Positions 17,070 to 46,008 of a stretch of 64,000 bases of DNA are shown in pieces (position 1 is the stretch's first letter; each line of letters begins with the position of its first letter). The notes under the pieces were generated by a model, which saw only the letters and a list, made by a program, of their open reading frames with translations, was not told the origin of the DNA and ran no database searches. A program made the translations under genes and the position numbers. This stretch comes from a bacterium (GTDB lineage: Bacteria; Margulisbacteria; Marinamargulisbacteria; JAHFDA01): positions 1,169 to 65,168 of the forward strand of contig JAHFDA010000007.1 in NCBI GenBank assembly GCA_023249225.1. The letters are read 5' to 3'.

Positions 17070-17738
17070 TTGAAAAATCTATACGAGAAGATTATCCAAA
17101 GCCTGCGCCGCAAGGTGGTAAACGAATTCCACCGCATTTATTATTATTCCAACGTGTGGGATCGCACTTACTTTTTGGGCAAGCGTATCCTGAAATGCCC
17201 ACTTGACCTGTGGACCTACCAGGAAATATTTTTTGAACTTAAACCCGATGTGGTGGTGGAATGTGGCACACGTTTTGGCGGCTCGGCGTATTACATGGCG
17301 CGCCTTTTTGACTGGATCGGCCAGGGTCGGGTGATTACCATCGATATCGAAAGCCATGAACAAGTAGAAGAAAAACGGCCGCTTCATGAACGCATCACCT
17401 ACCTGATTGGCTCCTCCACAGACCGAGCCATTGTTGAGCAAGTACGGGCGCTTATTCAGCCACACGAAAAAGTTCTGGTGATTTTAGATTCAGACCACAG
17501 CGCTCGCCATGTGTTAGAGGAACTGCGCCTTTATCATCTGCTGGTCAGCACCGGGAGCTACCTGATCGTCGAAGACACCAACATCAACGGCCATCCGGTG
17601 TTACCTCGGTGGGGCGCTGGACCCATGGAAGCCTTAGACACATTTTTAACGGAGAACCAGCAATTTGTGGTCGACTCGAAGCGCGAAAAGTTTATGATGA
17701 CCCAAAATCCACGCGGGTATCTATTGAAAGTTAAATAA
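17070..17738 (+). CDS. CmcI/cephalosporin-hydroxylase-family class I SAM-dependent O-methyltransferase
   Basis: HRIYYYSNVWDRTYFLGKRILKCPLDLWTYQEIFFELKPDVVVECGTRFGGSAYY is the conserved CmcI-family core. TTG start per the ORF track. Confidence 0.65.
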   Translation: MKNLYEKIIQSLRRKVVNEFHRIYYYSNVWDRTYFLGKRILKCPLDLWTYQEIFFELKPDVVVECGTRFGGSAYYMARLFDWIGQGRVITIDIESHEQVEEKRPLHERITYLIGSSTDRAIVEQVRALIQPHEKVLVILDSDHSARHVLEELRLYHLLVSTGSYLIVEDTNINGHPVLPRWGAGPMEALDTFLTENQQFVVDSKREKFMMTQNPRGYLLKVK

Positions 17739-19161
17739 AGGTTAACTCCTGAAACCGTTGCCAGTAAGTTTCACCCAACGAGGCCGGAGACACAGTGGCA
17801 TCCATCTTAAAATCAACATACAGCGGCGGTATGGGCAGGCGGAGCGCCGATACATAGCTGGCCAGGATCCAAAACCAGCCCCCAGATTCACAGAGATTAT
17901 GAATGATATTGATATCGTCGCGCACCAGTATTTCAATGACCGCCTTGAGCGTCCGGGGCTGGCTTGCGAGGTTGAAAATTGAGTATGGAAACTGCTCGTG
18001 ACGCAGCTTTAGCAATAAGGGCTGCACATATTTGGCTGTTGCATCGTCAGGCACCACAAACAGAACCCGCGACGAGCGTGCCAGCAAATAAAAATCGAAG
18101 CCGGGCTGGCGCAGCTGTCCCCCAGCCGCCAACAAGGTCTCGATGGCCTGCACGACCGAATCCGGAGACTGGTCTTTTAAACAGGTATCCAGGGGACAAT
18201 GGCGCGGCACACAAGCAAGCGGGCATGAAGTCTGATCCCGCACCAACAAGTATTTGGTAAACCAGGGGCCCCAGTGTAAAGGCTTAACGTTTTTAGTGGG
18301 GAATATCGCTGCAATCGAAATGCCCAGAGCGCTGGCCAAATGAAAAGGCCCGGTATCCACACCCACGTAGCAATCGTACAGCGAGATCAACGCAATCAGT
18401 TCTGGCAGCGAGGTTTGACTGACCAGACTGCTCACCGAACTTCCGAACTGTGCAAGCAAAGATTGTTCGGCCTCACGATCCTGGTCTTGCCCAGTGAGCA
18501 CGACTTTGTGGTGGGCAGCGAGCAATTGCGTAATGACCTGCGCATAACCTGCGGTATGCCAGGCCTTATTGCCGCCGCCGGAACTCAAGTGTATGCCCAC
18601 CAGTTTTTGACCAGGCTGCCAACCCAGTTGTCCTAACCGGGTGCGCATACGTTCGCGCAAGTCTGACTTGGCTTTGAGCACCATGGGGGCATAACCGTGT
18701 TGATAGCCCAGTGCCTTGAGTAAATCGAGATTATGTTCCACTTCGTGTTTGGTCAGATTACGCCAGGTCTGACGGGCGGGCACATTGTTCATCCACGCCA
18801 TAAATATTTTGGAACGGTCTCCGAGACGCAGCGGCACCCCTGCCAGCCAGGCAGCGGCAACATAGGGTAACTCCTGATAAAAATGGATGACAAGGTCATA
18901 ACGCCACGAACGCCATAACTGCACATATTGCCAGTACGCCCGCAGCCCTTTAACGCCACCGGTGTAATATGGATCGATGCGTACCTGACGAATGTCTGCA
19001 TTGCCGTCGAAGAGTTCACGCGTATACTCGCGCGCCAGCACGTCGATCTGCCAATCGGGATGCAGTTGCTTAAGCATACGAATGGCAGGCGTGATCAGCA
19101 TCACATCGCCGATGGCATCGGGACGCACGCATAAAACCGAACGTACGTGGCTAAGATGCAT
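17731..19161 (-). CDS. GT9 glycosyltransferase (heptosyltransferase-like) paralog 1 with Cys4 motif and C-terminal extension
   Basis: N-terminal VRPDAIGDVMLITPAIRMLKQ. GT9 motifs SSGGGNKAW and WGPW. Then CPLACVPRHCPLDTC and ~120 extra residues. Confidence 0.75.
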   Translation of the reverse strand: MHLSHVRSVLCVRPDAIGDVMLITPAIRMLKQLHPDWQIDVLAREYTRELFDGNADIRQVRIDPYYTGGVKGLRAYWQYVQLWRSWRYDLVIHFYQELPYVAAAWLAGVPLRLGDRSKIFMAWMNNVPARQTWRNLTKHEVEHNLDLLKALGYQHGYAPMVLKAKSDLRERMRTRLGQLGWQPGQKLVGIHLSSGGGNKAWHTAGYAQVITQLLAAHHKVVLTGQDQDREAEQSLLAQFGSSVSSLVSQTSLPELIALISLYDCYVGVDTGPFHLASALGISIAAIFPTKNVKPLHWGPWFTKYLLVRDQTSCPLACVPRHCPLDTCLKDQSPDSVVQAIETLLAAGGQLRQPGFDFYLLARSSRVLFVVPDDATAKYVQPLLLKLRHEQFPYSIFNLASQPRTLKAVIEILVRDDINIIHNLCESGGWFWILASYVSALRLPIPPLYVDFKMDATVSPASLGETYWQRFQELTFI

Positions 19162-20329
19162 GGTAGTTCACCAGCGCCTGGGCAAGGTTTGAAATTTTAA
19201 ATTTTTCATGGGTGCGCATGCGGGCCGCTGCGCCCCAATGGCGCACTTCATCCGGATGATTCCACAGCCAGCGTAGTTTACGGGCGATATCGTCAGCATC
19301 CAAGGCCTTGGCGTGCAGGCCCGTGACGCCGTCCATGACGACTTCGGATGGACCACAGCAATCCGACACCAGACAGGCCCGGCCATAGCGGCCCAGCTCC
19401 ATCGGCACCAAACCCATGGGTTCGTCCAGGGGCAGGTAGATGCCAAAGGCTGCGTTCGATAAGAGCTGTTCAAGCGCAGGTTCGTCCACAAAACCGGTGC
19501 GTTGCAATTCGGTTTGCAAGCGCTGCGTCTGAATGTAAGTGTCAACCTCGGATGCAAGTGGTCCCTGTCCAATCAGTTTAAGCTGAAAACCGCTGGGCCA
19601 ATGACCTTGATCACGCAACTGACGGCAAACGTCCAAAAGCAGGGATACATTTTTGTACGCTTCCAAACGACCCACCCAGACCGCATAATTCTGCGGATTT
19701 CCTGGGGGCGGGTTGTTTGCGGTTATTTCGGGCAGGCCAAAATACACTGTCTCGGCCTGCCGCCCATAAATTTGGCGCACACAAGCAGCGGTATACATAC
19801 TATTGGCAATGATATGGTCGACAACGGTCACGGCCTTTAGATCGGCATCCCGCAACTTTTGAAACTGTGCCGAATGGTATTCACGGTCGCTTTGTTCACG
19901 AAACCTGGGATCCAGACGCTGCTGGCGCACTAACACGGGCGCATATAAAGACCGCGGCGGCTCATGACAGGTCCAGACAATTTTTGGAAAATGCTTGTGA
20001 TCGTGCCTGGCCCGCGTAACCCAGATGGCTGACGGATAATGATGCACGTTAATCAGATCGAAATCGATAAAATAGTTTCGCAAGAGCCAGGCCGCAACAT
20101 CAAAGCGATAGACCCAATTAAAGACGTAGCGCGTCAGGGGTAGTTGTTGCAGGGTTATTTTTTGGGCTGCAAACAGTTTACGCAAGGCTTGATTGTTAAA
20201 CGAGCAGGCAAACACCGTGGGCTGATGTCCTTGGGCCTTGAGTGCGCTTGCCAGCCAAAGGATGATCTTTTCGGCGCCACCGTAAGTGTCTAAGCTGGGA
20301 TGAACAATTGCAATTTTCAGGCCAGACAT
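19151..20329 (-). CDS. GT4 (GT-B fold) glycosyltransferase
   Basis: N-terminal KIAIVHPSLDTYGGAEK and C-terminal EPMGLVPMELGRYGRACLVSDCCGPSEVV (E-x7-E-like motif). Overlaps neighbouring genes by 11-13 nt (operon). Confidence 0.75.
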   Translation of the reverse strand: MSGLKIAIVHPSLDTYGGAEKIILWLASALKAQGHQPTVFACSFNNQALRKLFAAQKITLQQLPLTRYVFNWVYRFDVAAWLLRNYFIDFDLINVHHYPSAIWVTRARHDHKHFPKIVWTCHEPPRSLYAPVLVRQQRLDPRFREQSDREYHSAQFQKLRDADLKAVTVVDHIIANSMYTAACVRQIYGRQAETVYFGLPEITANNPPPGNPQNYAVWVGRLEAYKNVSLLLDVCRQLRDQGHWPSGFQLKLIGQGPLASEVDTYIQTQRLQTELQRTGFVDEPALEQLLSNAAFGIYLPLDEPMGLVPMELGRYGRACLVSDCCGPSEVVMDGVTGLHAKALDADDIARKLRWLWNHPDEVRHWGAAARMRTHEKFKISNLAQALVNYHAS

Positions 20330-21456
20330 GCTTGATACGATTTTACCGTTGCAGCCACAGTTTTCGACCAGGTCAGTTCTGACGCGCGTTGCCGACCCTG
20401 GGTGACAAGCGATTGTCGCAGCACTGGCATGGCCTGCAAGCGATCAACCGCTTCGGCCAATTGTCCCGGTTGATCGGGTTCAATCAGCAAGGCCGCATCC
20501 CCAACCACTTCTGGCAGGGCACCGCGGTTTGAACACACCACCGGCACCCCATGCCGCATGGCCTCAAGCGGCGGAAAACCAAAGCCTTCGTACCAGGACG
20601 GAAACAGAAACATCGTTGCACCGGCAAACAGCTGCGCCAGTTCATCTGCCGGAACAAAACCTTTAACCCGAACCCGATTTTGAATTCCAGCCTGCTTGGC
20701 CCAGGTCTTGATTTGTTTGCTTTGAGTGCGGTCAAAGGGGCCAGCCAGCACCAGTGTCAGCGTTTGATCCTGCACCTGCGCAAAGCCTTGAATCAGACCG
20801 GGAATGTTTTTGTGCGTATCCAGGGCGCCCACAAACAAGGCATAGGGCGGCTCTGCGGAATCTTTCGGATGCGGTCTGCCCGTTTCAACTTGCTGAAAAT
20901 GATCACAGCCCAGTGGTGTGACGTAAATCTTCTCTGGCCTGAAATTCAGATGCTCCACCAAATCCTTTTGCGTGGCTTGTGACGGGGTTAGGATCGCCAG
21001 TGCCCGTTGCCCGAGCGCCTGTATCTTTTGCGCATACGCATCTGCTTCGGACTGCTGGCCATGAAAATACTTTTGAAAATCCACGTCTTTGAGCACGAGC
21101 GGAATGATATCGTGCACGGTGGCAATCACAGCCACCGATGCGGGCAATTCAAATACGTTGTACTGGGCCGTAAAGTGAAACAGGTCGATGTCGGCATCCA
21201 CAACGGGCTGACCATAGGCTTGGGAAGAACGCCTGACCCAAAACTGCCAGCCCGGTGCGCCTAACCACAGTGTGCGCAGACGCAGAGCCTCTAACTCCGC
21301 CGGATACGGTAGCGCGCGGTCGACCACGATAAACCACTGCACATGTTCAAAGGTCGGCAAATTTTTAAGCAGTTGATACACATACTGTCCCACTCCCCGC
21401 AGCCGCGAGCCTTCTTGCAAGGGACGGGCATCAATGGCAATTCGGACGGGTGTCAT
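20317..21456 (-). CDS. GT4 (GT-B fold) glycosyltransferase
   Basis: VRIAIDARPL N-terminus and EGFGFPPLEAMRHGVPVVCSNRGALPEVV motif. The longer track ORF (to 21555) only adds translation of a palindromic repeat, so the start is set at ATG 21456. Confidence 0.75.
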   Translation of the reverse strand: MTPVRIAIDARPLQEGSRLRGVGQYVYQLLKNLPTFEHVQWFIVVDRALPYPAELEALRLRTLWLGAPGWQFWVRRSSQAYGQPVVDADIDLFHFTAQYNVFELPASVAVIATVHDIIPLVLKDVDFQKYFHGQQSEADAYAQKIQALGQRALAILTPSQATQKDLVEHLNFRPEKIYVTPLGCDHFQQVETGRPHPKDSAEPPYALFVGALDTHKNIPGLIQGFAQVQDQTLTLVLAGPFDRTQSKQIKTWAKQAGIQNRVRVKGFVPADELAQLFAGATMFLFPSWYEGFGFPPLEAMRHGVPVVCSNRGALPEVVGDAALLIEPDQPGQLAEAVDRLQAMPVLRQSLVTQGRQRASELTWSKTVAATVKSYQACLA

Positions 21457-21481
21457 GTCGGCCAATACTATAATGGGGCTG

Positions 21482-21552
21482 CCGAAAAAGTCTGTTTTCT
21501 GCGACGCGTCATCCCGGCGAAAGCCGGGATGACGTAAAAGAGACTTTTTCAG
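21482..21552. repeat. MITE-like palindromic repeat, copy A (short form)
   Basis: Perfect palindrome CGTCATCCCGGCGAAAGCCGGGATGACG flanked by inverted arms CCGAAAAAGTCTGTTTTCTGCG / TAAAAGAGACTTTTTCAGC. The same family occurs at ~31.7 kb and ~60.1 kb. Confidence 0.6.
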
Positions 21553-21679
21553 CACTCCTCCTGGCTACCCTAAGGGATCAGAAAAACCACCATACACTGC
21601 ATCGAAGTTGGCCTAATTTGTATGATTGCTTATATTCATTATACAAAAACAGTATTTTTTGTATAATAATTAAATTATA

Positions 21680-23600: not shown

Positions 23601-24674
23601 CTAAGCCAATTGAGCCATGAATAATTGGTGGGGCAAGGGTTTGCCTGGATAATAATTTCCCGACTCAAGATAACGGGACAGGAAATTTACGCCATGGTCT
23701 AGCCGATCCCAGTATGTTTTGGGATGGGTCAACAGGCGGTCGATTATCGGTAGCACCGGCTGATGATCCGGAATGAGGAACAGGGCTTCCTTTGGTATGG
23801 GCACCAAAGTTTCTATGGCGCTGATGTCATTGGAAATCACAAACGAGTAACTCCAAACGCCTTCAAAATGACGATAGGTCCATCGGCTGTGGCCAGCCGG
23901 AGCTAAAACAATTTTTGACTGAAGCATGGTGTTGAAGTAAGTTTCAAAATCTAATTTTTGGCCCTTAAAGAACAAGTGATCAATTGGGCCGTGCTGGCTT
24001 TGGCATTGATCCAAAGGAAAGTAGGGGAGTTGGAGCAAGCCACCGAAAAAAGAATGCCGTGCTGCGGGCATCAATTCTAAAAGCCAATCGACGCGTTGGA
24101 AATAATTTGTTGAGGTGCCTGTGGAAAATTTATCGAGCCAGGTGGGGGTGCCAATAAAATGGATGTCGATTTTGCGTTTCTGAAACCAGAGATGTTTTAA
24201 AAACCGCGGAGAGTGTCGTGATAGTGACCGATGATGAAGAATGGTGCGAACATGGGCGTTAAAAAAAATGGGTAGTAGACCGATTTTGACATCGTCAATT
24301 ATTGGCAGATGATTTAGGCGACTGGTTTTAAGGTACAAGGAGCTAAGGGATTTTAAAAATAATTGATCAGAATAGTCCCAGCGGAGCCTCGGTTCGTCAA
24401 AATAGTCGAACAGGACGACGTGTTTGAATGTTATTTGGTGTAGATCCCTGGTATTAAAATGAGTGGGCATTCCAATAAAAAGATAATCCGTTGTAATATT
24501 GTCCAGCGCCTGCAGTTCGCTTAAGCTTAAACATCGTAGTTTTTCCGGTGGGGTGAAGCAACCCAAAAATGAGTAAAGTATTTTACCCTGGATATCAATA
24601 TTAAAGCGGGCATCGTCGCTTAAAATAATGAGATGGTTCAGGATCATGAACGGGCTTTCATCAATTGATGGCAA
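23601..24674 (-). CDS. hypothetical protein of unrecognised family (candidate glycan-modifying enzyme)
   Basis: 357-aa ORF. Its start overlaps the stop of the upstream GT4 gene, so it is in an operon with it. I recognise no known motif. Confidence 0.5.
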   Translation of the reverse strand: MPSIDESPFMILNHLIILSDDARFNIDIQGKILYSFLGCFTPPEKLRCLSLSELQALDNITTDYLFIGMPTHFNTRDLHQITFKHVVLFDYFDEPRLRWDYSDQLFLKSLSSLYLKTSRLNHLPIIDDVKIGLLPIFFNAHVRTILHHRSLSRHSPRFLKHLWFQKRKIDIHFIGTPTWLDKFSTGTSTNYFQRVDWLLELMPAARHSFFGGLLQLPYFPLDQCQSQHGPIDHLFFKGQKLDFETYFNTMLQSKIVLAPAGHSRWTYRHFEGVWSYSFVISNDISAIETLVPIPKEALFLIPDHQPVLPIIDRLLTHPKTYWDRLDHGVNFLSRYLESGNYYPGKPLPHQLFMAQLA

Positions 24675-25852
24675 TGCTCAAGATACCAGTCAAAAAATCT
24701 GGTAAAGGAATACTGATCGTTAACCCACCGCTGCGCGGCTTTTCCCATATGGCGCATGGCTTCTGGCTGGGTGAGACAATCGTTTAATGTCTTGGCGATG
24801 GCATGGATATCCAGCGGATCGACACACAACCCTGTAATCTGGTGTTGCACCGTTTCAGCTGGCCCGCCATGATTGGTGGCGATCGTTGGAACCCCCAGCA
24901 AAGCAGCCTCCAGCGGCACAAGTCCCAGGGGTTCATCCAACGAGAGATAGATTAAGGTGATCGCATTTTTTAAGAGTTGTTGTTTTGCGGTATTGGGGGC
25001 AAATGGAATCATTTGCACGTCATTTTGCAAGTGCAATTCCCGTATTAGATTTTTGCATGGAATTTCTTCGCGTCCCTTGCCAAGGATTACCAGCTGAGCG
25101 GGGTTGGGGGTATACCGTTTGAAAATTGAAAAGGCTCGGATGACATTGGGTACGTTTTTTTCATTTTCTAGACGTGAAATTACTATAAAATACGGTGCCG
25201 CAGGCTTAAAAAAATTATCCGCATCAATTCCCGAGTTTTGTTCGGTAATAATATTGGGATCGGTGGCGTACCAATGATAATCAGTGGTTTGTCCGTATAT
25301 CTCCCGAGTTTTGTGGAAGGAGTACAGCGAGTTACACAAAATGGCACCGGAGAGTTTGGTGGCCTTTAATTCTGTGCGTTGAATCCAATTCATGGTGTCC
25401 GGGTGATCCGTATAAAAGTTGGCATTGGTTAGGGACGAGTTGGCGTAATGTTCATTAAGAACACGTTTGAACACATTACGCGGAGCTTCGTGGCAAGTCC
25501 AAAGAATGGGCGGGTGCGATATACATAGTCTTTGGGCATAAAGCAACCAAATGTTGCTTGGGAAATTGTGGGTGTTTACAAGGTCAGCCCAACGCAATGA
25601 GGGTGCTAATCGCAAGGCAATGTAATACCAATACCATTCATTAATGCGGCCACCTGGCTGGGGCAGGTTGATATACTCAATATTATATTGTTTAAACTCC
25701 TTGATAAAAAAGGGGGCGATCTGGCAACTGGCAACGCGTACCTGATAAGCTTTCTGCGTTAAATTTTTAGCTAGGCTTAACACCACAAGTTCCGCACCTC
25801 CTACAAATTCCAGAGTGCTTTGTAAAATTAAAATTTTTTTTGCCGAATTCAT
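24644..25852 (-). CDS. GT4 (GT-B fold) glycosyltransferase
   Basis: KILILQSTLEFVGGAEL N-terminus and EPLGLVPLEAALLGVPTIATNHGGPAETV motif. Confidence 0.75.
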   Translation of the reverse strand: MNSAKKILILQSTLEFVGGAELVVLSLAKNLTQKAYQVRVASCQIAPFFIKEFKQYNIEYINLPQPGGRINEWYWYYIALRLAPSLRWADLVNTHNFPSNIWLLYAQRLCISHPPILWTCHEAPRNVFKRVLNEHYANSSLTNANFYTDHPDTMNWIQRTELKATKLSGAILCNSLYSFHKTREIYGQTTDYHWYATDPNIITEQNSGIDADNFFKPAAPYFIVISRLENEKNVPNVIRAFSIFKRYTPNPAQLVILGKGREEIPCKNLIRELHLQNDVQMIPFAPNTAKQQLLKNAITLIYLSLDEPLGLVPLEAALLGVPTIATNHGGPAETVQHQITGLCVDPLDIHAIAKTLNDCLTQPEAMRHMGKAAQRWVNDQYSFTRFFDWYLEHCHQLMKARS

Positions 25853-31778: not shown

Positions 31779-31851
31779 CTCCCAATCTGCCTGCAACGCG
31801 CCGACAGCCCCGGTTTCATAGGTGTGAATATTCCGGGGTAGAATACTGCCA

Positions 31852-36783: not shown

Positions 36784-37658
36784 GCCAGATGGAACGCATT
36801 GGCGTTGCCCTGCGCAGTTATAACCGCATTGAAGACGCGGTGATTCAGGTGAAGTATCTTTGGAAACATTTTAAGGCTTATCCGTATTATGTGGTGGTCG
36901 TCACCAACGGAGATGCCCAGGGTCATGTGTACCCCGCCGGTCAGGGCGAAGATGCGGTGCTGCGGCTGGACAAAGGTAACCCGGGCCACTTGTGTGGTGA
37001 CAACGACATGTTTAAAGCCAGTATCGAGCATTTGCATGCGCAGGGCATTCGGTATGCGCTGTGCCTTACCAGCGACACATGGTTGCTTAACGAGCAACTG
37101 TTAAAAAAGTATCTACCACGCTTAATTGCCGGACGTCATCAGTGGATTTCGGCGCAATGGGATACGCCTCCAGAGGTCGCTTTAGACTTGATGCTGGTGG
37201 ATGTGAAATTTGTACTTGAACACCAGTTATTTTGGGCCGATTGGTCACCAGAAATTCTGATCTATCAGCGTCTCGAAGCTCTGGTAAGTCCAGAATACCC
37301 GCGTCCTTACGGAAGGATACGCGAAATTTTTCCGATCCAGTACCCGCGCCATCTGTGGCGGCCGGGCTTTGATCCGTCAGGCTCGTATCACGCGCTGGGA
37401 CGGCCGTTTTATTTTCCACGTGCGGCCGTGGTGACGCATCATGCTGAACTATTGCCAGACGGGATGACCTCCAAAAAGCGTTATGCCAACGAGTGTGTGG
37501 GACGCGAACTGTTTCCAGACGTGGGATATGAGGCCAGGCAGCTTAAGGAAATGCGTCTGCGCCGTTGGTACCGGCGCTGCTATCATGCCATTGACGATGT
37601 ATTGTTTCCGCTTTACCGGCCGTTCTACACGCATCCCCCCAGTCCCAGTCTTTCGTAA
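36780..37658 (+). CDS. hypothetical protein of unrecognised family, last gene of the GT9 operon
   Basis: 292-aa ORF with ATGA overlap to GT9 paralog 5. The N-terminal IGVALRSYNRIED is reminiscent of the first beta-strand of GT-A-type transferases, but there is no clear DxD. Confidence 0.45.
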   Translation: MSQMERIGVALRSYNRIEDAVIQVKYLWKHFKAYPYYVVVVTNGDAQGHVYPAGQGEDAVLRLDKGNPGHLCGDNDMFKASIEHLHAQGIRYALCLTSDTWLLNEQLLKKYLPRLIAGRHQWISAQWDTPPEVALDLMLVDVKFVLEHQLFWADWSPEILIYQRLEALVSPEYPRPYGRIREIFPIQYPRHLWRPGFDPSGSYHALGRPFYFPRAAVVTHHAELLPDGMTSKKRYANECVGRELFPDVGYEARQLKEMRLRRWYRRCYHAIDDVLFPLYRPFYTHPPSPSLS

Positions 37659-38980
37659 GCCCAGGTTTCAAAAGCGGGTATCTCCAAATCGGCCAGATGC
37701 ACATACACCGGCGGATTCCATGCGGTCAGGTTAGAGGTTTTCATCTTTAAAGGGTAGATCCACGGATGTCGCCAGGGCTGCTTGAGTACCAGGACGTTTA
37801 TCTTGTGAGAAACAAGTATCTGTTCTGCAAATTTCATATTGAATGGGCACAGGCTATGTGCCTGGTAGCCCGCATCTTGCAAGTGCCGGGTGGCCTGTGG
37901 ATCGTCGCATAGAATTTCTAGAGAAGCTTTCAGTAGGTGGCTCCGCAGTTGTGTCGCTGTCCAGTACGTAGGCTTGTCGAGTTGTTGCTGGCACAGAGCA
38001 AATAACTTTTCTGCAGAAATATGCGGCTGACAGGTGCTTACGGCCAGAGCACAATTCCATGGCGTGCAGGCCATGGCGCAGTGCGGAGTTTCTTTGTACG
38101 CCAACGCGTGTACATCCCAAGGCGCCCAGCGGCAGGGATTGATGTTCTGGGTGACAAGCACACATATTTGCGGGATACCGCACGCGGCGGCCAGGTGTGC
38201 GGTGCCAGTGCTGGGGCCAAGTAGCAGGCGTGCATGGGCGATCCACGCTGCCAGTTCGCTCACCGAGGTTTGGCCGGTGGCGTCCAGCACGCGTATTTTC
38301 AGGGGTTCCGGAATTTCTGCCAGAATTTTTTGGGCGGTATGGCTGGCTTTGGATGTGCCCATCAATCCAACCGCGGCACGGGGATAGGTTAAAAGCAAAT
38401 GCCTGGCCAAAGTAGCCAAGGTGCTAAAACTCACAGCCAACGCGCTTTGCGCTTCGAGCGCCAGTAAAATCCACTCGGTTTGACCGGAATGATTTTGAAA
38501 CTGACTGACAGATTCAGGCAACTTGAATGTCGAGGGATTGAAGTGGTAATGAATTCCTGCCGATGCGGGTGTCATGGAAAGTTTATTGACAAGGTCCAGG
38601 TTCTGAAAGACCTGTGGTCTAAATGAGGACACGCGGTGCGAACGCCAAAGTCCGCGGTTGAACAGGCGCAAGTCTTTGGGCGAACGCTTCCAGCCGCTCC
38701 GTAGCGGGATCCCAACCTCGAGCGCTAAGCGGGCATGGGGATCTTCTTCCCAAAAAAATACGGCAGCGTCAAAGGCAGCCTGACGCAATCGTTCTACAGT
38801 CATATCTTTGGGAGACCAGATTTCATCTACCCAGGTCATGGCTGGATGCAAGTGCTCAAGTCCTGGCGCGGCCACTAGGGTGAGGTGTGCGCCGCCAGAC
38901 TTAAGCTGCCAAAGTGCAGGAAGGGTTAGAATCAGATCTCCTAAATGATCGGGACGGGACAATAATACTTTGCGTAACAT
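37625..38980 (-). CDS. GT9 glycosyltransferase (heptosyltransferase-like) paralog 6 with Cys4 motif and C-terminal extension
   Basis: SRPDHLGDLILTLPALWQLKS, W.PW, CAMACTPWNCALAVSTC, then ~110 extra residues. Confidence 0.7.
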   Translation of the reverse strand: MLRKVLLSRPDHLGDLILTLPALWQLKSGGAHLTLVAAPGLEHLHPAMTWVDEIWSPKDMTVERLRQAAFDAAVFFWEEDPHARLALEVGIPLRSGWKRSPKDLRLFNRGLWRSHRVSSFRPQVFQNLDLVNKLSMTPASAGIHYHFNPSTFKLPESVSQFQNHSGQTEWILLALEAQSALAVSFSTLATLARHLLLTYPRAAVGLMGTSKASHTAQKILAEIPEPLKIRVLDATGQTSVSELAAWIAHARLLLGPSTGTAHLAAACGIPQICVLVTQNINPCRWAPWDVHALAYKETPHCAMACTPWNCALAVSTCQPHISAEKLFALCQQQLDKPTYWTATQLRSHLLKASLEILCDDPQATRHLQDAGYQAHSLCPFNMKFAEQILVSHKINVLVLKQPWRHPWIYPLKMKTSNLTAWNPPVYVHLADLEIPAFETWAYERLGLGGCV

Positions 38981-39026
38981 GGTGCGGTTAACCCAGATGA
39001 TGCATACTTAGAAGTCGATCATGGCA

Positions 39027-39066
39027 CACGGGAACCTGATACTACTATATGAATAGTGCGGGCTAA
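39027..39066 (+). repeat. GT-C-flanking repeat, copy R2 (diverged)
   Basis: ACGGGAACCTGATACTACTATATGAATAGTGCGGGCTAA. Shares ACGGGAACC and ATGAATAGTGCGGG(T/C)TAA with R1/R3. It overlaps the stop codon of GT-C paralog B. Confidence 0.45.
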
Positions 39067-40718
39067 TAAAAAGGCCTTAAATCAAAAAAGGTGTTTTCTT
39101 TGTTCATGCCGTAGACCACGGTATAGGTTGGGTTTGCATAGCATTGATACGCGATGTCATGTTTTTGTGAAAAACGTTTCCAGGTATGCAGGTGGGCTGA
39201 ACCCGTAAAAAATATATACGGTCGTTCAGCTACAGGTTTACGCATCAAGGATCGATAGATAAAAATTTCATAGCTGGAGTCACGGGCGTAAGTCATCACC
39301 GGAATAGACTGGTGTTGTCTGCCCGAAAGATAGGTGAGCTTGTGACTGATCCAGTATTCAGAAAAGCTAAGGGCCAGCGCATGGTTGTCTAAAAAACCGA
39401 TCAGGTCTTGCATGTCGCTTTCAGCGGCATTGGGCGTCTGGCGATACAAACCTTGTTGCAGGGCGTAAACATGATAGTGGCATCCAATATAGGCCAGCGT
39501 GAAAACCAGAAACACCACAAGTGCTTTGCGTCCGCCACGCTGTTCAATCCATTCAAGAAACCGGCACCACAAAAAAGGGATAAAACCAAGCACCGGTATT
39601 AAAAAACGTACGTGCACGAAGTCATGCAATTGCCTGGACAAAATGGCCACGCCAAAGATCCATAGTAATCCAAGTATCATGATGGATTCTTCAGACAGCA
39701 GGCGTTTTTGCAGACTTAAATAGGCTTTGATCTCACCAAGATTGCGATGGATCACAAAAATGATAAAGCCAAACAGTATGGCCAGGTACAGATGGCCGGC
39801 GATTTTTAAGCTGGTGGGTAAGGTAAAAGACGCCACATGGGTCAGGTTTTGAATGCCACGGTAAAAGGGGAGCGACTCCGCTGGAATCCATTTAACGCCT
39901 GCATAGTAAGGCAGTATTTCTGTCACACAGAGTTTGAGCGATTGAAAGATGCTGGCGGGATCCGCCAAACCCATGACAGGACCACCCACATCGACCCGAA
40001 AAATTTTTGCCAGTATGCCTGGAGCGTAACCAAGCCCAAAACCCCCTAACGCAAGGTATCCGTTTTTTGTAGAGCCTATTTTTTTAATCAGTCCGCGTAC
40101 TCCGTTTTCAATGATGCCGATGGTTAAAAATAGTCCCAGGTAATAAATAGCCAGGGTATAGGTGTAGTAGGCAAAACCCATAAAAAATCCGGCAAACCAT
40201 AGCCAGGTTCTGGACGAGCTGCTGTTTTTTTTCCGGTATTTAAAAAAGCAAAACAAAGCCAGGGTTCCCAGGGCGGTGATGGTGGTATGTCCGCCTACCG
40301 CAAAAAAAGCAAAGTGTTTTGTGATCCAAATATTAAACGCCAGGGGCAGCGTTCCCCAAAAGGCGTACGTGACACCTATGCCCAAGAGGCGCAGTAACTT
40401 AAACGAAGTGCCCACCAGCACAAGGTAGGCTAAAAAAATACTAAACTTATAAGCGCCCGGACCGGCCCCCAGGATCAGTTGTGCCGGAATGGTGCCGGCC
40501 AGCTCGGTGATGCCCTGGTAGGGGGCCCCCGGTATGTTTAAAGGGCGATAATGTTCATGGATCATACGCTGGGATACGATGGCGTTATAGGCCTCATCGG
40601 CATCCAAATAACTGGCGGCATGCATCAAAAAGGGGATCTGGGTGAGCACCGTGATCAAAATGAGCGCAAAAAATGCCAACGGCTCACCAGATAAAATGAG
40701 TTTTTTAACTGGCACCAT
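39063..40718 (-). CDS. GT-C fold membrane glycosyltransferase (ArnT/PMT-like), paralog B
   Basis: Polytopic with a DADEAYN first-loop motif. Paralogous to 27843-29516, and flanked on both sides by copies of the ~43-bp repeat. Confidence 0.6.
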   Translation of the reverse strand: MVPVKKLILSGEPLAFFALILITVLTQIPFLMHAASYLDADEAYNAIVSQRMIHEHYRPLNIPGAPYQGITELAGTIPAQLILGAGPGAYKFSIFLAYLVLVGTSFKLLRLLGIGVTYAFWGTLPLAFNIWITKHFAFFAVGGHTTITALGTLALFCFFKYRKKNSSSSRTWLWFAGFFMGFAYYTYTLAIYYLGLFLTIGIIENGVRGLIKKIGSTKNGYLALGGFGLGYAPGILAKIFRVDVGGPVMGLADPASIFQSLKLCVTEILPYYAGVKWIPAESLPFYRGIQNLTHVASFTLPTSLKIAGHLYLAILFGFIIFVIHRNLGEIKAYLSLQKRLLSEESIMILGLLWIFGVAILSRQLHDFVHVRFLIPVLGFIPFLWCRFLEWIEQRGGRKALVVFLVFTLAYIGCHYHVYALQQGLYRQTPNAAESDMQDLIGFLDNHALALSFSEYWISHKLTYLSGRQHQSIPVMTYARDSSYEIFIYRSLMRKPVAERPYIFFTGSAHLHTWKRFSQKHDIAYQCYANPTYTVVYGMNKENTFFDLRPFY

Positions 40719-40736: not shown

Positions 40737-40780
40737 ACGGGAGCCCGCGACAAGTAAAGTATGAATAGTGCGGGTTAAAA
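40737..40780 (+). repeat. GT-C-flanking repeat, copy R3
   Basis: ACGGGAGCCCGCGACAAGTAAAGTATGAATAGTGCGGGTTAAAA, 3 mismatches to R1. It fills the 70-bp divergent gap between GT-C paralog B and the 40789 gene. A TTGAAC-N16-TAAAGT promoter-like arrangement overlaps it. Confidence 0.5.
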
Positions 40781-40788
40781 CGCGGAAC

Positions 40789-41520
40789 ATGCTCGGCTTC
40801 ATTTTGGGTCTGGTGCTTTTAGCACTGGGCCGCAATGATGTGCGCTACCTTTTTAAATCGGCTTCGGTGCTTGCTTGCAACGAAATATTTTCGACACCCG
40901 GCAGTGCCGCAGCCCAGTTCGAAAAAAGTGCCAATCTCCTTTACTGTGGTCGCCTCATTGAAGCCATCCATGCCATAAAAAATTTGCCGCCCCCGTACCA
41001 GATTCGCGATGAGCTTGAGGCAGAATTTAATAACCAAATCAATATCCATACGGCCCGTTGGCAGCCAGGCGTGAATCTGGTTTTGGTGCACCTTTTTAAT
41101 AATGAATACGACGATGCGCTTGCAAGGAGCAACGCCAATTTACGTTCTTTTCCGGATCAGGCCTGGTGCAAACTGCTACATGCCTTTGTTTTAGCTAAAA
41201 AGGGGCAGATGCACGCAGCCGTTGGTATGGGGCATGAGGCCGATGCGATGCTGCCAGACCATCCTTTGCCGCCTGTGCTGCTTGCGATTGCCTACTGGGA
41301 ACTGGGGGATAAAGCATTGGCCTTGCGTACCCTTGGCGTGGCGCTATTGCGGCTGCGCCTTTTAGAAATAATGTGGGTGCTCAATGAAATCGTTCGAGGC
41401 CTGTTTAACAATCTTTCAGTGTTTGGCATGGTATTGGCTGGGGGAGTTTATTTTTGGATATTCCGCCGCATGGCGGGTATTCGGCAGAGTCTGCTGGGCG
41501 ATATCCGACGCTTGATTTAG
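40789..41520 (+). CDS. TPR-like small membrane protein, paralog of the 29494-30261 gene
   Basis: ATG 40789 gives MLGFILGLVLLALG as a signal/TM segment. Helical-repeat middle and C-terminal TM (GVYFWIFRRMAGI). Confidence 0.45.
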   Translation: MLGFILGLVLLALGRNDVRYLFKSASVLACNEIFSTPGSAAAQFEKSANLLYCGRLIEAIHAIKNLPPPYQIRDELEAEFNNQINIHTARWQPGVNLVLVHLFNNEYDDALARSNANLRSFPDQAWCKLLHAFVLAKKGQMHAAVGMGHEADAMLPDHPLPPVLLAIAYWELGDKALALRTLGVALLRLRLLEIMWVLNEIVRGLFNNLSVFGMVLAGGVYFWIFRRMAGIRQSLLGDIRRLI

Positions 41521-41600: not shown

Positions 41601-42104
41601 ATGAAGGCTATTTTATATAAGCGCGTTGCCGAATCCACCGACCCCTTCGAACGTGCGGCCAAGCGTTGGGGCGTCCGCAAGGACGGTATCCGTCATGACA
41701 CCAGGTCTTCTGATCGCAGACAGGATCTCCGGCCTTTTGACCCGCCACCCACTGTAGAGGATCTGGGCGAGCCCACGGTGGAAAAATTAATCCATTGCCG
41801 AAATCGAGAAGGTTATTTGAAAGCAGATTTGAAAAAGTATTCCAACGTACTCAAATACAATTTTGGAATGCTTGTATTCATTGGGGTAAGCCTGGGGCTT
41901 TCGATGAGTCAACAGTGGGATCCCCTATGGCCTACCCTGGCAATCCTGCTGGTCGCCGATTTTGCGGTCGAAGGCTGGGCCTTTACCAAGTACGCCCGGA
42001 CGGATCAAGCGATTTCAAAAAACCGCGCAGTGATGCTTGGCCTCGAGCTGGCCCTCTATAACCGGGGCATTCCTTTTTCGCCCGAAGACGACACGGCATT
42101 CTAA
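41601..42104 (+). CDS. hypothetical membrane protein
   Basis: 167 aa with charged N-terminal half and two hydrophobic helices. No equivalent in the first copy of the duplicated module. Confidence 0.35.
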   Translation: MKAILYKRVAESTDPFERAAKRWGVRKDGIRHDTRSSDRRQDLRPFDPPPTVEDLGEPTVEKLIHCRNREGYLKADLKKYSNVLKYNFGMLVFIGVSLGLSMSQQWDPLWPTLAILLVADFAVEGWAFTKYARTDQAISKNRAVMLGLELALYNRGIPFSPEDDTAF

Positions 42105-42143: not shown

Positions 42144-43544
42144 ATGTCATGGTCTGATTCCATTCGCCGCATCCTGGTCATTCGCCCAGACCAGATTGGC
42201 GACTTGTTGCTGATTACGCCAGTGCTACGGGCCTTAAAAAAAAAATGTCCCGGCGTAGAAATCACGGCCTGCATCAAGCCTTACACCGCGCCCATTGCCT
42301 GCCGTATTCCTGAAATTGATGTCATCTTTACAGATCGCCTGCTACCAGGCCAATATACCTGGTCTGATTTTTGGCAGGTAGCAAACGAGATTCGCGCCCG
42401 TCAGTTTGACCTGGCCATTCATTTCACCACCGATTATCCCTACACACTCATATCTTTTTTGGCAGGTATTCGCTACCGGGTAGGAGATTATGCCCGCCTG
42501 GGGATGCGACCCTGGCTCAACATGCCTGTGCGTCAGCATTACCGTGATACCAGCAAGCACGAGATTGAACACAACTATGATCTTTGTAACATTTTTGACA
42601 GCGGACTTTCTGAAGAGCCGATGTCGCTGCGGGTCAGTGCCGAAGAAGTGCAAAAATTTCGGATGACCCATCAGCTTCCAGCGGGACCACTGCTTGCGGT
42701 GCATCTTGGGACGGGTGGCGGAAATAAGCCTTGGTTGCCTGAATCTTATGCGATGGTTTGTGACCAGATACTCCAAAAGTTTCAGATGCCATCCCTGGTC
42801 ATCGGGTCGCCTGCGGAACAATCTCTCGCGCAGCGGTTTATGGCCTCTGCAAAAGGGCGGCACCATGTCATGGTGGGTAAAACCGATCTTTCAGATTTGC
42901 CGTTGGCCATTGCCTGCGGTGATTATTTTTTGGGCGTCGATTCGGGACCCATGCATATTGCTGCTGCGCTACAAAAGCCCACCGTGGCTATTTTTCCAAC
43001 CAAAATGGTCAAGGCGGCACACTGGGGTCCCTGGCATGTGCCGCAAGAAATTGTGCATATGCAAACCGCTTGCGAGCTGCGTTGTGTGCCCCGCCAATGT
43101 GCTTTGGAGACCTGCTTAAAAGAACATCCGGTCGATGCGGTTTTTCAGGCTGTGTCACGGCTGATCGAAGGGCATTGTTCCAAAAATGCTTGGGATCAAA
43201 AGCTGCAACGCATCCGTAAAACACTGGGCATTGGTTTTATACACAAGGGCCATGGCCTTTTGCCGACGATGCAAACACAGATGCATCAGGTAAAAGCAGA
43301 AGGCTTCCAAGTCCGATTATTGCAGCTTGGCCCCTGGCAGGTCAGCGAACTGGCCGCTGCTTTAAATGCTTTTAACCTGCATGTATTGGTGGTGCCTTCG
43401 CACGTACAGCTCTGGCGCGTGGCAGCGGCCCTCACAGGCTCCAAAGTATTTATTCCACCCCTGGTGATCACGCCCGATGCTTTGGAAGCTGCCGAGGGGA
43501 ACGTGGCGCAACGCCTGGTGCAATGTTTTAACCCGTGCGAGTAA
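42144..43544 (+). CDS. GT9 glycosyltransferase (heptosyltransferase-like) paralog 7 with Cys4 motif and C-terminal extension
   Basis: IRPDQIGDLLLITPVLRALKKKCP, LGTGGGNKPWLPESY, WGPW, CELRCVPRQCALETC, then ~130 extra residues. Confidence 0.75.
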   Translation: MSWSDSIRRILVIRPDQIGDLLLITPVLRALKKKCPGVEITACIKPYTAPIACRIPEIDVIFTDRLLPGQYTWSDFWQVANEIRARQFDLAIHFTTDYPYTLISFLAGIRYRVGDYARLGMRPWLNMPVRQHYRDTSKHEIEHNYDLCNIFDSGLSEEPMSLRVSAEEVQKFRMTHQLPAGPLLAVHLGTGGGNKPWLPESYAMVCDQILQKFQMPSLVIGSPAEQSLAQRFMASAKGRHHVMVGKTDLSDLPLAIACGDYFLGVDSGPMHIAAALQKPTVAIFPTKMVKAAHWGPWHVPQEIVHMQTACELRCVPRQCALETCLKEHPVDAVFQAVSRLIEGHCSKNAWDQKLQRIRKTLGIGFIHKGHGLLPTMQTQMHQVKAEGFQVRLLQLGPWQVSELAAALNAFNLHVLVVPSHVQLWRVAAALTGSKVFIPPLVITPDALEAAEGNVAQRLVQCFNPCE

Positions 43545-43578
43545 AATACCGTCATGGGTCAAAGGGCGGCCATCACGT

Positions 43579-44496
43579 ATGACTAAAACTCCGCAAATTT
43601 CTGTGGTCATCGGCACCTTTAACCAGGCCGCCAAACTCAATCTGGTGCTTAACGGATTTGCGCGGCAGACCCTTGCTAAGGATGCGTTTGAAGTGCTGGT
43701 GGCGGATTCCTGCTCTACCGACGATACGCGTACGATCTGTGAAGCCTTTAAGGCTGACATGGCGCTTACTTATTTATGTATCCAAAACCAGGGCAAGGCC
43801 AAAGCACGCAATCTGGCGGCCCAACAGGCCAGCGGGGCGGTTTTGTTTTTGACCGATGCCGACATGGTTCCGGCGCCTGACTTGCTTGAAGAACATCTCA
43901 AGGCCCACGGTCGGCTATCCACCCTGGCCATGTTCGAAGGCCTGACCTTTAATCTTAAAACCGAAACACTTCCAGCCGATCAGGCCATTAAAAGTCCTTA
44001 TATCACCAGATATTTGCGGTCGGGGCAGCGCCTGGGTTTTTATTATTTTTTAAGTGGCAATCTTTCGCTGCCACGGGATGTCTTTTTACAACACGGGGGT
44101 TTCGACGAGCGTTTTACGGGTTATGGCTGGGAAGATATCGAACTGGGATATCGACTGGTACGGCTGGGACGCGTCCCGCTGTGTTATCTGCCCGAGGCAG
44201 TCAATTATCACTATCATGTGCTTGCGGACGAAGAAGAGATCCACCGGGCGGTGGCCAAGGGCGTTGCGGCGCTGACCGTGCTTAAGCTGCATCCCGAACT
44301 ACGCAGTTTTTTAGGTTTAGACCCCTGGTTACTGCGCTTTTGGCAGTGGCTGGATCGGCCCGTCTGGGAGCAAAAAGCCTGGAAACAATTTCGAGAGGGT
44401 GGGGCTTTGGCACGGCGCCTAGTAAAATGGTGTTTGATGGAGATCTACTATCGCCGTGGTGCCAGGCAGGGTATGAAAGCAGAAGTTAGAAGGTAG
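43579..44496 (+). CDS. GT2 (GT-A fold) glycosyltransferase
   Basis: PQISVVIGTFNQAAKLNLVLNGFARQT...FEVLVADSCSTDDT, LTDADMVP (DxD) and GGFDERFTGYGWEDIELGYR. Confidence 0.75.
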   Translation: MTKTPQISVVIGTFNQAAKLNLVLNGFARQTLAKDAFEVLVADSCSTDDTRTICEAFKADMALTYLCIQNQGKAKARNLAAQQASGAVLFLTDADMVPAPDLLEEHLKAHGRLSTLAMFEGLTFNLKTETLPADQAIKSPYITRYLRSGQRLGFYYFLSGNLSLPRDVFLQHGGFDERFTGYGWEDIELGYRLVRLGRVPLCYLPEAVNYHYHVLADEEEIHRAVAKGVAALTVLKLHPELRSFLGLDPWLLRFWQWLDRPVWEQKAWKQFREGGALARRLVKWCLMEIYYRRGARQGMKAEVRR

Positions 44497-44505
44497 AACG
44501 CAGAA

Positions 44506-46008
44506 GTGATTCCAATGACCACCCACATTCCTATAGATGATTCTGATCTTAAATTCAAAGACATTGCGCAGATGTCTCCTGCGGTTTCGGTGGTCATGGT
44601 TCACTTTCGCCACCCGGCGCAAACCTGGCAAGCCTTAGAAGCTTTGTTTGCTTCGACATTAATGTCTATCGAAGTCATTCTGGTCGATAACGGTAAAGAT
44701 GGTGGCGAGCCCTATGCGTTTGGACATCCGCAACTGCTGCGCCTGGCCAATGAACGTAACGAAGGTTTTGCCAAGGCTTGCAACCAGGGGGCGCGCAAAG
44801 CGCGGGGGGAATTTTTATTTTTCTTAAACTCTGATGCGCATGTGCATCCGGGTTGTATCGAGGCTTTAATGGCGTATTTGCGTTATCACCCTGACGTCAT
44901 GTTGGCAGGTCCGCAGTTGCTGTATCCCAATGGTCGGGTGCAGGGTCAGGGCAGCCTTCTCGGCGCAGGCCGTTGGGGTGGGTCCCATCCGCGCCATAAG
45001 GCCTTTATCAGCGGGGCGGCCATGTTGATCCGGGCAAAAGACTTTGGGGATTTGGGCGCATTTGACGAACAGTTTGTCTTTTACAATGAGGATGTAGACT
45101 TGTGTCGACGCATCCGCAGACAAAAAAAACACATGGCCTATGTGCCGACTGCCAAAGTCACCCATTTGGGTGGTGGCTCGGGAACGCAGACGCCTTTTAC
45201 AATTGAACACGGACATCAGGGTGCACTGCGTTTGGCACAAAAACATTATCCGCGCTGGGTGGCTGGCAGTTATCGTGGGTTGATGTTGGCCGAGACAGCG
45301 GTGTTAGGTTGTTGGTCGGCAGTCAGGCAAAAACCAGCGCAGGCGCAGGCCTATCGAAAAGTCCTGGGATGGCTTTGGCGGGCAGGTCGCGTGGCTTGTA
45401 CGGTTCTGTTGCTGATGGCTTTATCGACGCCTCTTTGGGCGGCCGAGTATGACGCCGAGCGGGTTAAACAAACCATCCATTGGCAGGCACAGGTGCAAAA
45501 AAATCCCGAAGACTCCCGCAGTCATTTTGAGCTGGCCATGATTTATGCGCTGACGGGACGGGTCGAAAAGGGCCTGGCTGAACTTGGAAAACTGCAGCCT
45601 AGTTATGCGCCCGACATTATCAAAGTGTACGAACCCCTGGTGCAATCTGAACCCTGGGATGCTGACCACCGCTTTAAATTGGCCTTTGCCTATTATTTTG
45701 CCAATCGAAAAGAAGATGCCAAGAAAATGTTCCAGCGCATTCTTGACGAGAACAATCCCGACCATGTGTGGGCTTTGGGCTATAAAGCGCTGATCATCGG
45801 TTACGAAGGCGACAACGATACGGTGATCAAGTTATGTCAACGGGCTCTCGAAATCGATAAAAATGCCGCAGGCATTTTGTACTTGCGCGGCGAAGCCTAC
45901 CGAAAAAAAGGCGATCTGTTTAAAGGGGCTACAGATATTCTTAAGGCCTTGCGTCTGCGGGCGTTAGACGAGCATGATTGGAAAAAATGGGAGCGCGAGG
46001 CGCGTTAA
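44506..46008 (+). CDS. GT2 glycosyltransferase fused to C-terminal TPR repeats
   Basis: VSVVMVHFRHPAQTW...IEVILVDNG, FLNSDAHV (DxD-like). TM segment ~310-330, then TPR-like repeats (HFELAMIYALTGRVEKG..., AFAYYFANRKEDA...). Confidence 0.7.
   Translation: MIPMTTHIPIDDSDLKFKDIAQMSPAVSVVMVHFRHPAQTWQALEALFASTLMSIEVILVDNGKDGGEPYAFGHPQLLRLANERNEGFAKACNQGARKARGEFLFFLNSDAHVHPGCIEALMAYLRYHPDVMLAGPQLLYPNGRVQGQGSLLGAGRWGGSHPRHKAFISGAAMLIRAKDFGDLGAFDEQFVFYNEDVDLCRRIRRQKKHMAYVPTAKVTHLGGGSGTQTPFTIEHGHQGALRLAQKHYPRWVAGSYRGLMLAETAVLGCWSAVRQKPAQAQAYRKVLGWLWRAGRVACTVLLLMALSTPLWAAEYDAERVKQTIHWQAQVQKNPEDSRSHFELAMIYALTGRVEKGLAELGKLQPSYAPDIIKVYEPLVQSEPWDADHRFKLAFAYYFANRKEDAKKMFQRILDENNPDHVWALGYKALIIGYEGDNDTVIKLCQRALEIDKNAAGILYLRGEAYRKKGDLFKGATDILKALRLRALDEHDWKKWEREAR

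Follow-up and report, generated by a model that had tools for sequence, protein, structure and literature searches.

The stretch analyzed here (the window) comprises 64,000 nucleotides of contig JAHFDA010000007.1 from the marinamargulisbacterial assembly GCA_023249225.1. It carries a 28-kb island of glycosyltransferase (GT) genes, seven of which encode members of GT9, a family whose characterized members are mostly heptosyltransferases. In these seven proteins (p1–p7, Table 1) the GT9 core is followed by a cluster of four cysteines (Cys4) and an additional C-terminal domain. Proteins combining a GT9 core, the pattern W-G-P-W-x12-C-x3-C-x4-C-x4(6)-C and a C-terminal alpha/beta domain of at least 110 amino acids (aa) are designated below as long GT9. 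This architecture is present in all seven paralogs, in each of which a profile of the Cys4 cluster and tail is matched over its full length.

Seven Long GT9 Paralogs

The initial annotation placed seven GT9 paralogs at the positions given in Table 1, and these gene calls are borne out. All seven open reading frames (ORFs) are uninterrupted, and their boundaries are identical in independent public assemblies, where the start of p4 at 33788 is also called. The gathering score of PF01075 (Glyco_transf_9, cut-off 22) is passed by every paralog with 42.5–90.4 bits. The Pfam match ends at about residue 290–360 in each protein, and the C-terminus lies outside of it. Past the last GT9 helix, a tail of 115–147 aa follows in all seven, in agreement with the C-terminal extension claimed for each copy. 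The predicted PDxxGD-type motif is found near all N-termini in the form R-x-D-x-x-G-D. The WGPW motif, also ascribed to every copy, is exact in five of them, while p4 has SGPW and p6 has WAPW. Two runs of overlapping genes are present in the island: one consists of p3, p4, p5 and the ORF starting at 36780, the other, on the minus strand, of two GT4 genes and p1, which is the last in the run.

Pairwise identity among the paralogs is 21–30%, and no DNA-level repeat between them was revealed by repeat comparison within the window. The duplications are therefore old, as originally proposed, and a recent duplication of the GT9 genes is ruled out by the lack of shared DNA repeats. The divergent proteins p2 and p6 are each other's nearest relatives.

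Table 1. Genes of the island and its borders, with tail-less GT9 genes from other loci (L numbers). Bit scores are followed by cut-offs where available.
Feature	Position	Strand	Remarks
PMT_2+TPR membrane protein	13712–15685	-	PMT_2 28.7 bits (26.1); outside the interval first delimited
2OG-Fe(II) oxygenase	15702–16547	-	left island edge
YqeY	16620–17054	+	left island edge
CmcI / rhamnosyl O-methyltransferase-like	17070–17738	+	NCBIfam rhamnosyl O-methyltransferase 191 bits, below cut-off (400)
long GT9 p1	17731–19161	-	476 aa; PF01075 79.9 bits
GT4	19151–20329	-	PF00534 84.9 bits; overlaps p1 and next GT4
GT4	20317–21555	-	PF00534 126.8 bits
family-less ORF	23601–24674		357 aa
GT4	24644–25852	-	PF00534 128.8 bits; overlaps downstream ORF 23601–24674
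polytopic membrane protein	27843–29516	-	557 aa; ~12 hydrophobic segments; HADEAFNA motif after first transmembrane segment (TM1)
TPR-like protein	29494–30261	+	255 aa; N-terminal transmembrane segment, faint TPR-like signal; immediately upstream of p2
long GT9 p2, divergent subtype	30278–31615	+	445 aa; PF01075 62.5 bits; 30% identity to p6
long GT9 p3	32392–33804	+	470 aa; PF01075 42.5 bits; heads its overlapping run
long GT9 p4	33788–35365	+	525 aa (from ATG at 33788); PF01075 90.4 bits; longest tail, 147 aa
long GT9 p5	35365–36783	+	472 aa; PF01075 57.5 bits
family-less protein	36780–37658	+	292 aa; no Pfam match; 4-nt overlap with p5 end
long GT9 p6, divergent subtype	37625–38980	-	451 aa; PF01075 42.5 bits; directly downstream of polytopic gene 39063–40718
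polytopic membrane protein	39063–40718	-	551 aa; DADEAYNA motif after TM1
TPR-like protein	40768–41520	+	250 aa; upstream of 41601–42104 and p7
long GT9 p7 (modelled copy)	42144–43544	+	466 aa; overlaps GT2 gene 43477–44496
GT2	43477–44496	+	PF00535 73 bits; conserved partner of long GT9 elsewhere
GT2 fused to C-terminal TPR	44506–46008	+	PF00535 + TPR_19, TPR_17, TPR_2
LptC-like	46036–46608	+	PF06835 23.8 bits (21); directly downstream of island
LptA-like	46517–47143	+	PF03968 52.3 bits (20.4)
tail-less GT9, family Cys spacing	L007 5955–6980		
tail-less GT9, family Cys spacing	L014 694–1677		
tail-less GT9, family Cys spacing	L015 5086–6180		
tail-less GT9, family Cys spacing	L017 3704–4747		
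tail-less GT9, family Cys spacing	L027 4307–5359		
tail-less GT9, family Cys spacing	L043 1733–2815		
tail-less GT9, family Cys spacing	L054 1444–3128		

The Cys4 Cluster

Four cysteines are invariant across the seven paralogs, the first being located 16 residues past the first residue of WGPW. Their spacing is C-x3-C-x4-C-x4-C in five proteins (CPLACVPRHCPLDTC, aa 313–327 in p1; CALYCDHQRCPVDDC, aa 306–320 in p5) and C-x3-C-x4-C-x6-C in p2 and p6. The cluster is 100% conserved in 101 long GT9 family sequences. The earlier claim of a Cys4 cluster behind WGPW in each copy thus holds for the cysteines themselves, while the last spacing takes two forms and such a cluster is common in other GT9 proteins. 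Of 16 ordinary-length GT9 homologs of p5, 11 have four cysteines at this place, spaced in the C-x2-C manner.

Ordinary-length environmental GT9 (for example, proteins annotated as 'heptosyltransferase II' and LpxL-GT9 fusions) carry a C-x2-C-x4-6-C-x5-8-C cluster, which is placed as in long GT9, about 45 residues past the D-S/T-G motif and just ahead of the C-terminal helix. Unlike long GT9, these proteins have no tail; they comprise 304–392 aa, or 630–670 aa with an N-terminal acyltransferase domain. In three proteins of the latter kind (P0009, P0011 from a Verrucomicrobia metagenome-assembled genome (MAG), and P0012; 630–670 aa), a lipid A acyltransferase domain (PF03279) is fused to GT9, each with a CSPCFLRECPxDxRCM cluster.

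A structural Cys4 iron finger is located in the C-lobe of TibC (Cys339, 342, 358 and 370), where it is required for dimerization and substrate recognition (PMC4358343). The clusters of TibC and long GT9 are both situated in the C-lobe and differ in spacing, which is C-x2-C-x15-C-x11-C in TibC against C-x3-C-x4-C-x4-C in long GT9.

C-Terminal Domain and Predicted Structure

The structure of p7 was modelled by AlphaFold2 from a 46-sequence family alignment. The single-chain model has a mean predicted local distance difference test (pLDDT) value of 94.6 and a predicted template modelling (pTM) score of 0.94, and its tail is confident. A GT-B core of two lobes (aa 1–341), superposable on WaaC and WaaF, is followed by a separate alpha/beta tail (aa 343–466, DNA 43170–43541), as was supposed when the extension was first described. 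The tail consists of helix-strand units with strands at 362–366, 389–393, 414–416 and 440–442, and in the model it is a discrete four-stranded alpha/beta domain, predicted to be flavodoxin-like. Folds listed for it are the response-regulator receiver, the B12-binding domain, N-terminal halves of GT-B enzymes (BshA) and sub-domains of adenylating enzymes.

The Cys cluster of p7 (aa 310–324, DNA 43071–43115) lies between the last C-lobe strand (301–304) and the C-terminal helix (330–341). It is modelled with high confidence and without regular secondary structure, as a metal knuckle would look like.

No column is invariant in 30 aligned tails, which suggests that the tail is structural rather than catalytic. 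The best-conserved tail positions over 101 family members are a Trp (79%) and a Pro-Pro pair (64–78%). The extra domain is absent from solved and curated heptosyltransferases. Solved GT9 structures comprise 326–349 aa, and their alignments with the profile of the seven paralogs end by profile position 303, before the Cys cluster.

Catalytic Residues

Residues D13, K192 and D261 of heptosyltransferase I (HepI) are essential and conserved in heptosyltransferases (PMC5713226). Their equivalents were mapped via an alignment including WaaC and WaaF. All three (K192 as K or R) are retained in p1, p3, p4, p5 and p7. In p2, D13 and K192 (as Arg) are kept, and Asn occupies the D261 position (VGNTGP instead of VDTG). 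In p6, D13 is kept, the segment with K192 is deleted and Ser occupies the D261 position (GPSTGT). Family-wide, the D13 and D261 positions are 90–100% conserved, and K or R is found at the K192 position in 92 of 94 sequences.

Comparison with Known GT9 Enzymes

The profile built from the seven paralogs matches the structures 3TOV, WaaF (1PSW) and WaaC (2GT1, 2H1F, 6DFE). E. coli WaaF (HepII, 1PSW), WaaC (HepI, 2H1H/2GT1) and WaaQ share about 16–20% identity with the window paralogs. They comprise 320–350 aa and have neither the Cys4 cluster nor the C-terminal domain, whereas the window paralogs have both; two of the latter, in turn, lack D261. The Veillonella parvula protein 3TOV (349 aa, without a tail) is of unknown function and, being uncharacterized, gives no indication of the function of long GT9.

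All seven paralogs score below the cut-offs of the NCBIfam equivalog models (heptosyltransferase I/II/III, RfaC/F/Q, Aah/TibC). The nearest case is p7 with TIGR02195 (heptosyltransferase II), 123.1 bits against 134.6, and the other scores are far lower. The best NCBIfam matches are nevertheless models of heptosyltransferases I, II and III, as would be expected if the paralogs were ordinary WaaC, WaaF or WaaQ enzymes with extensions arising as ORF artefacts. This explanation is extremely improbable. Orthology to the ordinary enzymes is refuted by the equivalog scores, and fused or mis-called ORFs are refuted by the same calls in public assemblies, by the confidently modelled tail and by more than 100 database proteins of the same architecture. 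In this respect the initial annotation, which treated the proteins as distinct from the known enzymes, is upheld.

According to another reading, the seven proteins belong to GT9 by fold only, use a non-heptose donor and form a non-LPS product (LPS, lipopolysaccharide), such as an exopolysaccharide (EPS), a capsule or a glycolipid. Their number would then reflect diversified specificities for acceptor and donor in a surface-polysaccharide locus that is variable and in part of horizontal origin. The equivalog scores discussed above are consistent with this, as are the conserved GT2 partner, whose nearest NCBIfam model is that of an EPS enzyme (EpsD, 148 bits, below the cut-off of 370), and the mobile-type genes (two ORF6N and AAA_14/DUF4143), the low-GC stretch and the flanking repeats of the island. 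We regard this reading as unlikely, since the HepI residues involved in ADP-heptose binding and activation (D13, K192, D261-T/S-G) are 90–100% conserved family-wide and the nearest structures are those of ADP-heptose enzymes.

Among enzymes outside the E. coli paradigm, several GT9 proteins of Helicobacter pylori build a heptose-rich LPS glycan (core heptoses and DD-heptan). These enzymes have the usual GT9 length, and their genes are dispersed, in contrast to the single 28-kb island described here.

TibC/AAH enzymes (bacterial autotransporter heptosyltransferases, BAHT; 4RAP/4RB4) are more distant. TibC lacks a flavodoxin-like tail; it has a beta-barrel at its N-terminus and, in addition, a beta-hairpin thumb. 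The core of long GT9 starts at residue ~8 in the p7 model, which leaves no room for a beta-barrel of this type. The Aah/TibC model TIGR04414 (cut-off 200) is matched in p4 and p6 only, with 17.2 and 20.2 bits, and in structure WaaF and WaaC match far better than TibC does.

Long GT9 in Other Genomes

An exhaustive hidden Markov model (HMM) search with the Cys4+tail profile against 1.84 billion representative proteins (50% identity clusters) retrieved 214 clusters at E ≤ 1e-3 and 113 at E ≤ 1e-10. Nearly all matches are proteins of 440–530 aa (more than 100 such proteins), in which the match extends from about residue 290 to the C-terminus. The C-x3-C-x4-C-x4-C signature is found in nearly all of them, and those with names are annotated as 'glycosyltransferase family 9 protein' of Candidatus Margulisiibacteriota. 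Since 214 clusters share the architecture, long GT9 constitute an existing but unnamed subfamily. A search of one literature library revealed nothing linking heptosyltransferases with Margulisbacteria or Saganbacteria, and no description of a GT9 protein with a zinc finger or a C-terminal extension.

Related loci were found in species-representative genomes by a degenerate DNA pattern for WGPW-x12-C-x3-C-x4-C-x4-C. The pattern was matched by 59 loci, most of which were confirmed as family members by an HMM check. Named loci belong mostly to Margulisiibacteriota (Marinamargulisbacteria, Saganbacteria/WOR-1 and others); a few come from Acidobacteria, and several matches are probably due to chance. 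Because the pattern covers only about 59% of family members, the copy numbers derived from it (1–2 per locus, at most 3–4 per assembly) are lower bounds. In the window, seven long GT9 genes lie within 26 kb.

In relatives, long GT9 are often encoded in a conserved GNAT-GT9-GT9(-GT2) operon amid housekeeping genes. Three loci from different genomes (L061 7674–11494, L062 7760–11422 and L063 7675–11452) contain a gene for a GNAT acetyltransferase of about 305–311 aa followed by two overlapping long GT9 genes. The first GT9 of the operon in L062 has no Pfam match on record, and in L063 an ortholog of the window GT2 is located 3 kb downstream of the operon. The best matches of the GNAT proteins are RimI-type protein acetyltransferases, generic and sub-threshold. 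No GNAT homolog was found in the window. Orthologs of the window GT2 43477–44496 (E 1e-65 to 1e-81) occur beside or near long GT9 in L013, L040, L049, L050, L055 and L063.

The nearest public full-length relatives of the window paralogs share 25–38% identity with them. Closer relatives come from related metagenomes: P0002 is 54% identical to p5, P0030 51% to p4 and P0096 38% to p6. P0002, the sole close relative of p5, is a fragment that includes the tail; P0030 is also a fragment. These three matches suggest that a sister organism encodes orthologs of three or more of the paralogs. In a neighbour-joining tree (without support values, WaaF not being resolved as outgroup), the groups p1+p4+p7, p2+p6+P0096, p3+P0076 and p5+P0047 are formed, suggesting both old duplication within the lineage and separate subclades.

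Tail-less GT9 of 328–365 aa that end right after C-x3-C-x4-C-x4-C were also observed (Table 1), often beside long GT9. They may represent an ancestral form or a secondary loss of the tail. In acidobacterial proteins of 667–797 aa (Vicinamibacterales, fen MAG; L034 5541–7589, L044 195–2195, L047 1319–3709), the Cys4 cluster and the first part of the tail are matched in the C-terminal third, behind a large N-terminal addition.

Companion Genes and the Duplicated Triad

Family matches were obtained for the companions listed in the initial annotation: three GT4, a GT2, a GT2 fused to TPR, a CmcI-type methyltransferase and a 2OG-Fe(II) oxygenase. The three GT-C enzymes also named there are recovered in part: the protein encoded at 13712–15685 passes PMT_2, while the polytopic proteins 27843–29516 and 39063–40718 are without a family match. 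Further genes of the island encode two ORF6N proteins, an AAA_14/DUF4143 ATPase and several products without a family. The flanks contain tig, a moeB-like gene, nadA, hflX, a UPF0182 gene and two tRNAs; these housekeeping flanks indicate that the island is chromosomal and that the host is a diderm.

A triad composed of a p2- or p6-type GT9, a polytopic protein and a TPR-like protein of about 250 aa is present twice. The two polytopic proteins are 28% identical, and the two TPR-like proteins 27%. The ortholog of p6 found elsewhere (P0096) also directly follows a long unannotated gene. Judging by topology and the D-x-D-E-A motif after TM1, the polytopic pair is possibly GT-C-like.

A 43-nt intergenic element occurs near the polytopic genes at 27782–27824 and 40737–40779 (93% identical, zero chance matches expected), with a weaker copy at 39011–39047. 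The element contains an internal AACCCGC/GCGGGTT stem. Its first copy lies just 3' of the gene 27843–29516, the other one in the divergent promoter region between 39063–40718 and 40768–41520. It could act as a common regulatory site at these positions, or it could be a small repeat.

Proposed Function of the Island

In the reading that we favour, with confidence slightly better than even, the locus is a chromosomal island for the assembly of a surface glycan in an uncultured diderm, and its seven GT9 proteins are members of the long GT9 subfamily with a GT-B core, a Cys4 knuckle and a flavodoxin-like tail. It builds on fold and domain boundaries, on the invariant cysteines, on family membership and, in five paralogs, on the HepI residues described above.

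The five intact long GT9 could be inverting transferases that depend on nucleotide sugars and work at the cytoplasmic face. Alongside the three GT4, the two GT2 and the O-methyltransferase, each of them would extend a lipid-linked glycan by a different residue. The donor is most likely ADP-heptose, judging only by family membership, catalytic residues and nearest structures. The Cys4 cluster would bind one structural metal ion (Zn or Fe), by analogy with the TibC iron finger, and the non-catalytic tail could serve for oligomerization or for docking to a partner or acceptor. The proteins p2 and p6, which have lost D261, could be catalytically altered or act as scaffolds, working with the adjoining polytopic and TPR-like proteins. 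Because lptC/lptA-like genes directly follow the island, an LPS-core/O-chain-type glycolipid is weakly favoured as the product over a glycoprotein.

Several observations weigh against this interpretation. As to the product, the LptC-like and LptA-like proteins are both below the NCBIfam equivalog cut-offs, and their adjacency may be coincidental. No waaA, gmhA, hldE, gmhB or hldD family was found among the scanned ORFs of the 64-kb window, in accordance with the initial statement that waaA and the genes of ADP-heptose biosynthesis are missing there, and the long GT9 operons of relatives are not in LPS loci. Modification directed at proteins is the more typical setting of the TPR-fused GT2, the PMT_2+TPR protein and the 2OG oxygenase. 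The polytopic proteins 27843–29516 and 39063–40718 have no Pfam match up to E=1 and no PDB sequence match, and their GT-C assignment is thus without support from sequence. The initial interpretation, for its part, is weakened by the loss of D261 in two of the seven paralogs and by the limited distinctiveness of the island: the Cys4 cluster alone is not special to it, being common in ordinary-length environmental GT9, and the full architecture is pre-existing and not unique to it.

The TPR fusions, the oxygenase, the parallel with TibC and the non-LPS context of relatives keep a second possibility alive, namely that the island encodes a protein glycosylation system. In such a system, long GT9 would heptosylate or otherwise glycosylate proteins of the surface or S-layer in the manner of TibC/AAH. 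The Cys4 cluster and the tail would be used for oligomerization and for recognition of these proteins, which would also be the targets of the TPR-GT2, the PMT_2-TPR protein and the 2OG oxygenase. The lack of waaA and heptose genes in the window fits this system too, as do operons headed in relatives by a GNAT with RimI-type, if sub-threshold, matches. It is doubtful all the same: the TIGR04414 scores are about a tenth of the cut-off and confined to two paralogs, the TibC-type beta-barrel is absent, the Cys spacing is unlike that of TibC, WaaF and WaaC are structurally much closer, and the island shows neither an autotransporter gene nor an obvious gene for a repeat-rich substrate.

In a further, rather improbable version, long GT9 would have no part in LPS core synthesis. 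Here, several paralogs would form a hetero-oligomeric glycosylation line typical of Margulisiibacteriota-related bacteria, joined by a metal-binding Cys4 cluster and the tail, in which catalytically dead proteins of the p2/p6 type are docked to the polytopic proteins. The line would modify a protein, or else a lipid acceptor of an unusual kind, in a processive manner. If true, this would be a new way of organizing GT-B enzymes, for which the TibC dodecamer is the only forerunner.

Significance

To our knowledge, GT9 enzymes have been studied almost only as proteobacterial LPS core heptosyltransferases of 320–350 aa, which are targets for antibiotic adjuvants, and as protein heptosyltransferases of the TibC type. 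The island offers seven natural variants of a third GT9 architecture in one genome. This architecture occurs widely across candidate lineages related to Margulisiibacteriota (Marinamargulisbacteria, Saganbacteria/WOR-1) and has no name in databases, and definition of the long GT9 family would improve the annotation of several hundred proteins. It also raises the question of what a metal knuckle and a third domain contribute to a GT-B enzyme (oligomerization, membrane or acceptor docking). Under the favoured reading, the island points to an uncharacterized envelope glycan in organisms without cultured representatives. No concept is overturned by the island, and its distinctive features are partly common to many uncharacterized GT9 proteins.

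Repeats, Mobile-Type Genes and Flanks

Hairpins resembling repetitive extragenic palindromes (REP), TCCCGGCGAAAGCCGGGA, are present in four copies against 0.01 expected (21474–21558, 31654–31784, also 60169–60186). They form inverted arms of 57 nt and 48 nt, 86–88% complementary, on either side of a 10-kb segment that holds the AAA_14/DUF4143 ATPase, an ORF6N gene, a GT4, family-less ORFs, one polytopic protein and p2. The segment includes the lowest GC content of the window, 0.44–0.47 at 24–28 kb, and may be an insertion or prone to inversion. The ORF6N (KilA-N-like) paralogs of the island (26079–26744 and 31852–32379) are 58% identical. In an unrelated MAG, another ORF6N gene (L062 1769–2359) lies no more than 10 kb from a pair of long GT9 genes.

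On the left flank, a VCA0040-like gene (undecaprenyl-phosphate translocase-like, PF04018; 5047–6000) is located about 12 kb upstream of the island and could be relevant to recycling of the lipid carrier of the glycan pathway. Small ORFs with weak RelE and ParE-like matches, a possible toxin-antitoxin pair, lie at ~8.2–9.2 kb beside tRNA-Gly, outside the island. The left flank of the contig beyond the window, about 1.2 kb, contains nothing relevant. On the right flank, HflX (60668–61969) was compared with 5.8 billion proteins: its best non-self homolog is 59% identical, followed by matches of ~50% from mixed phyla, and the source organism appears, from these identities, to represent a poorly sampled deep lineage.

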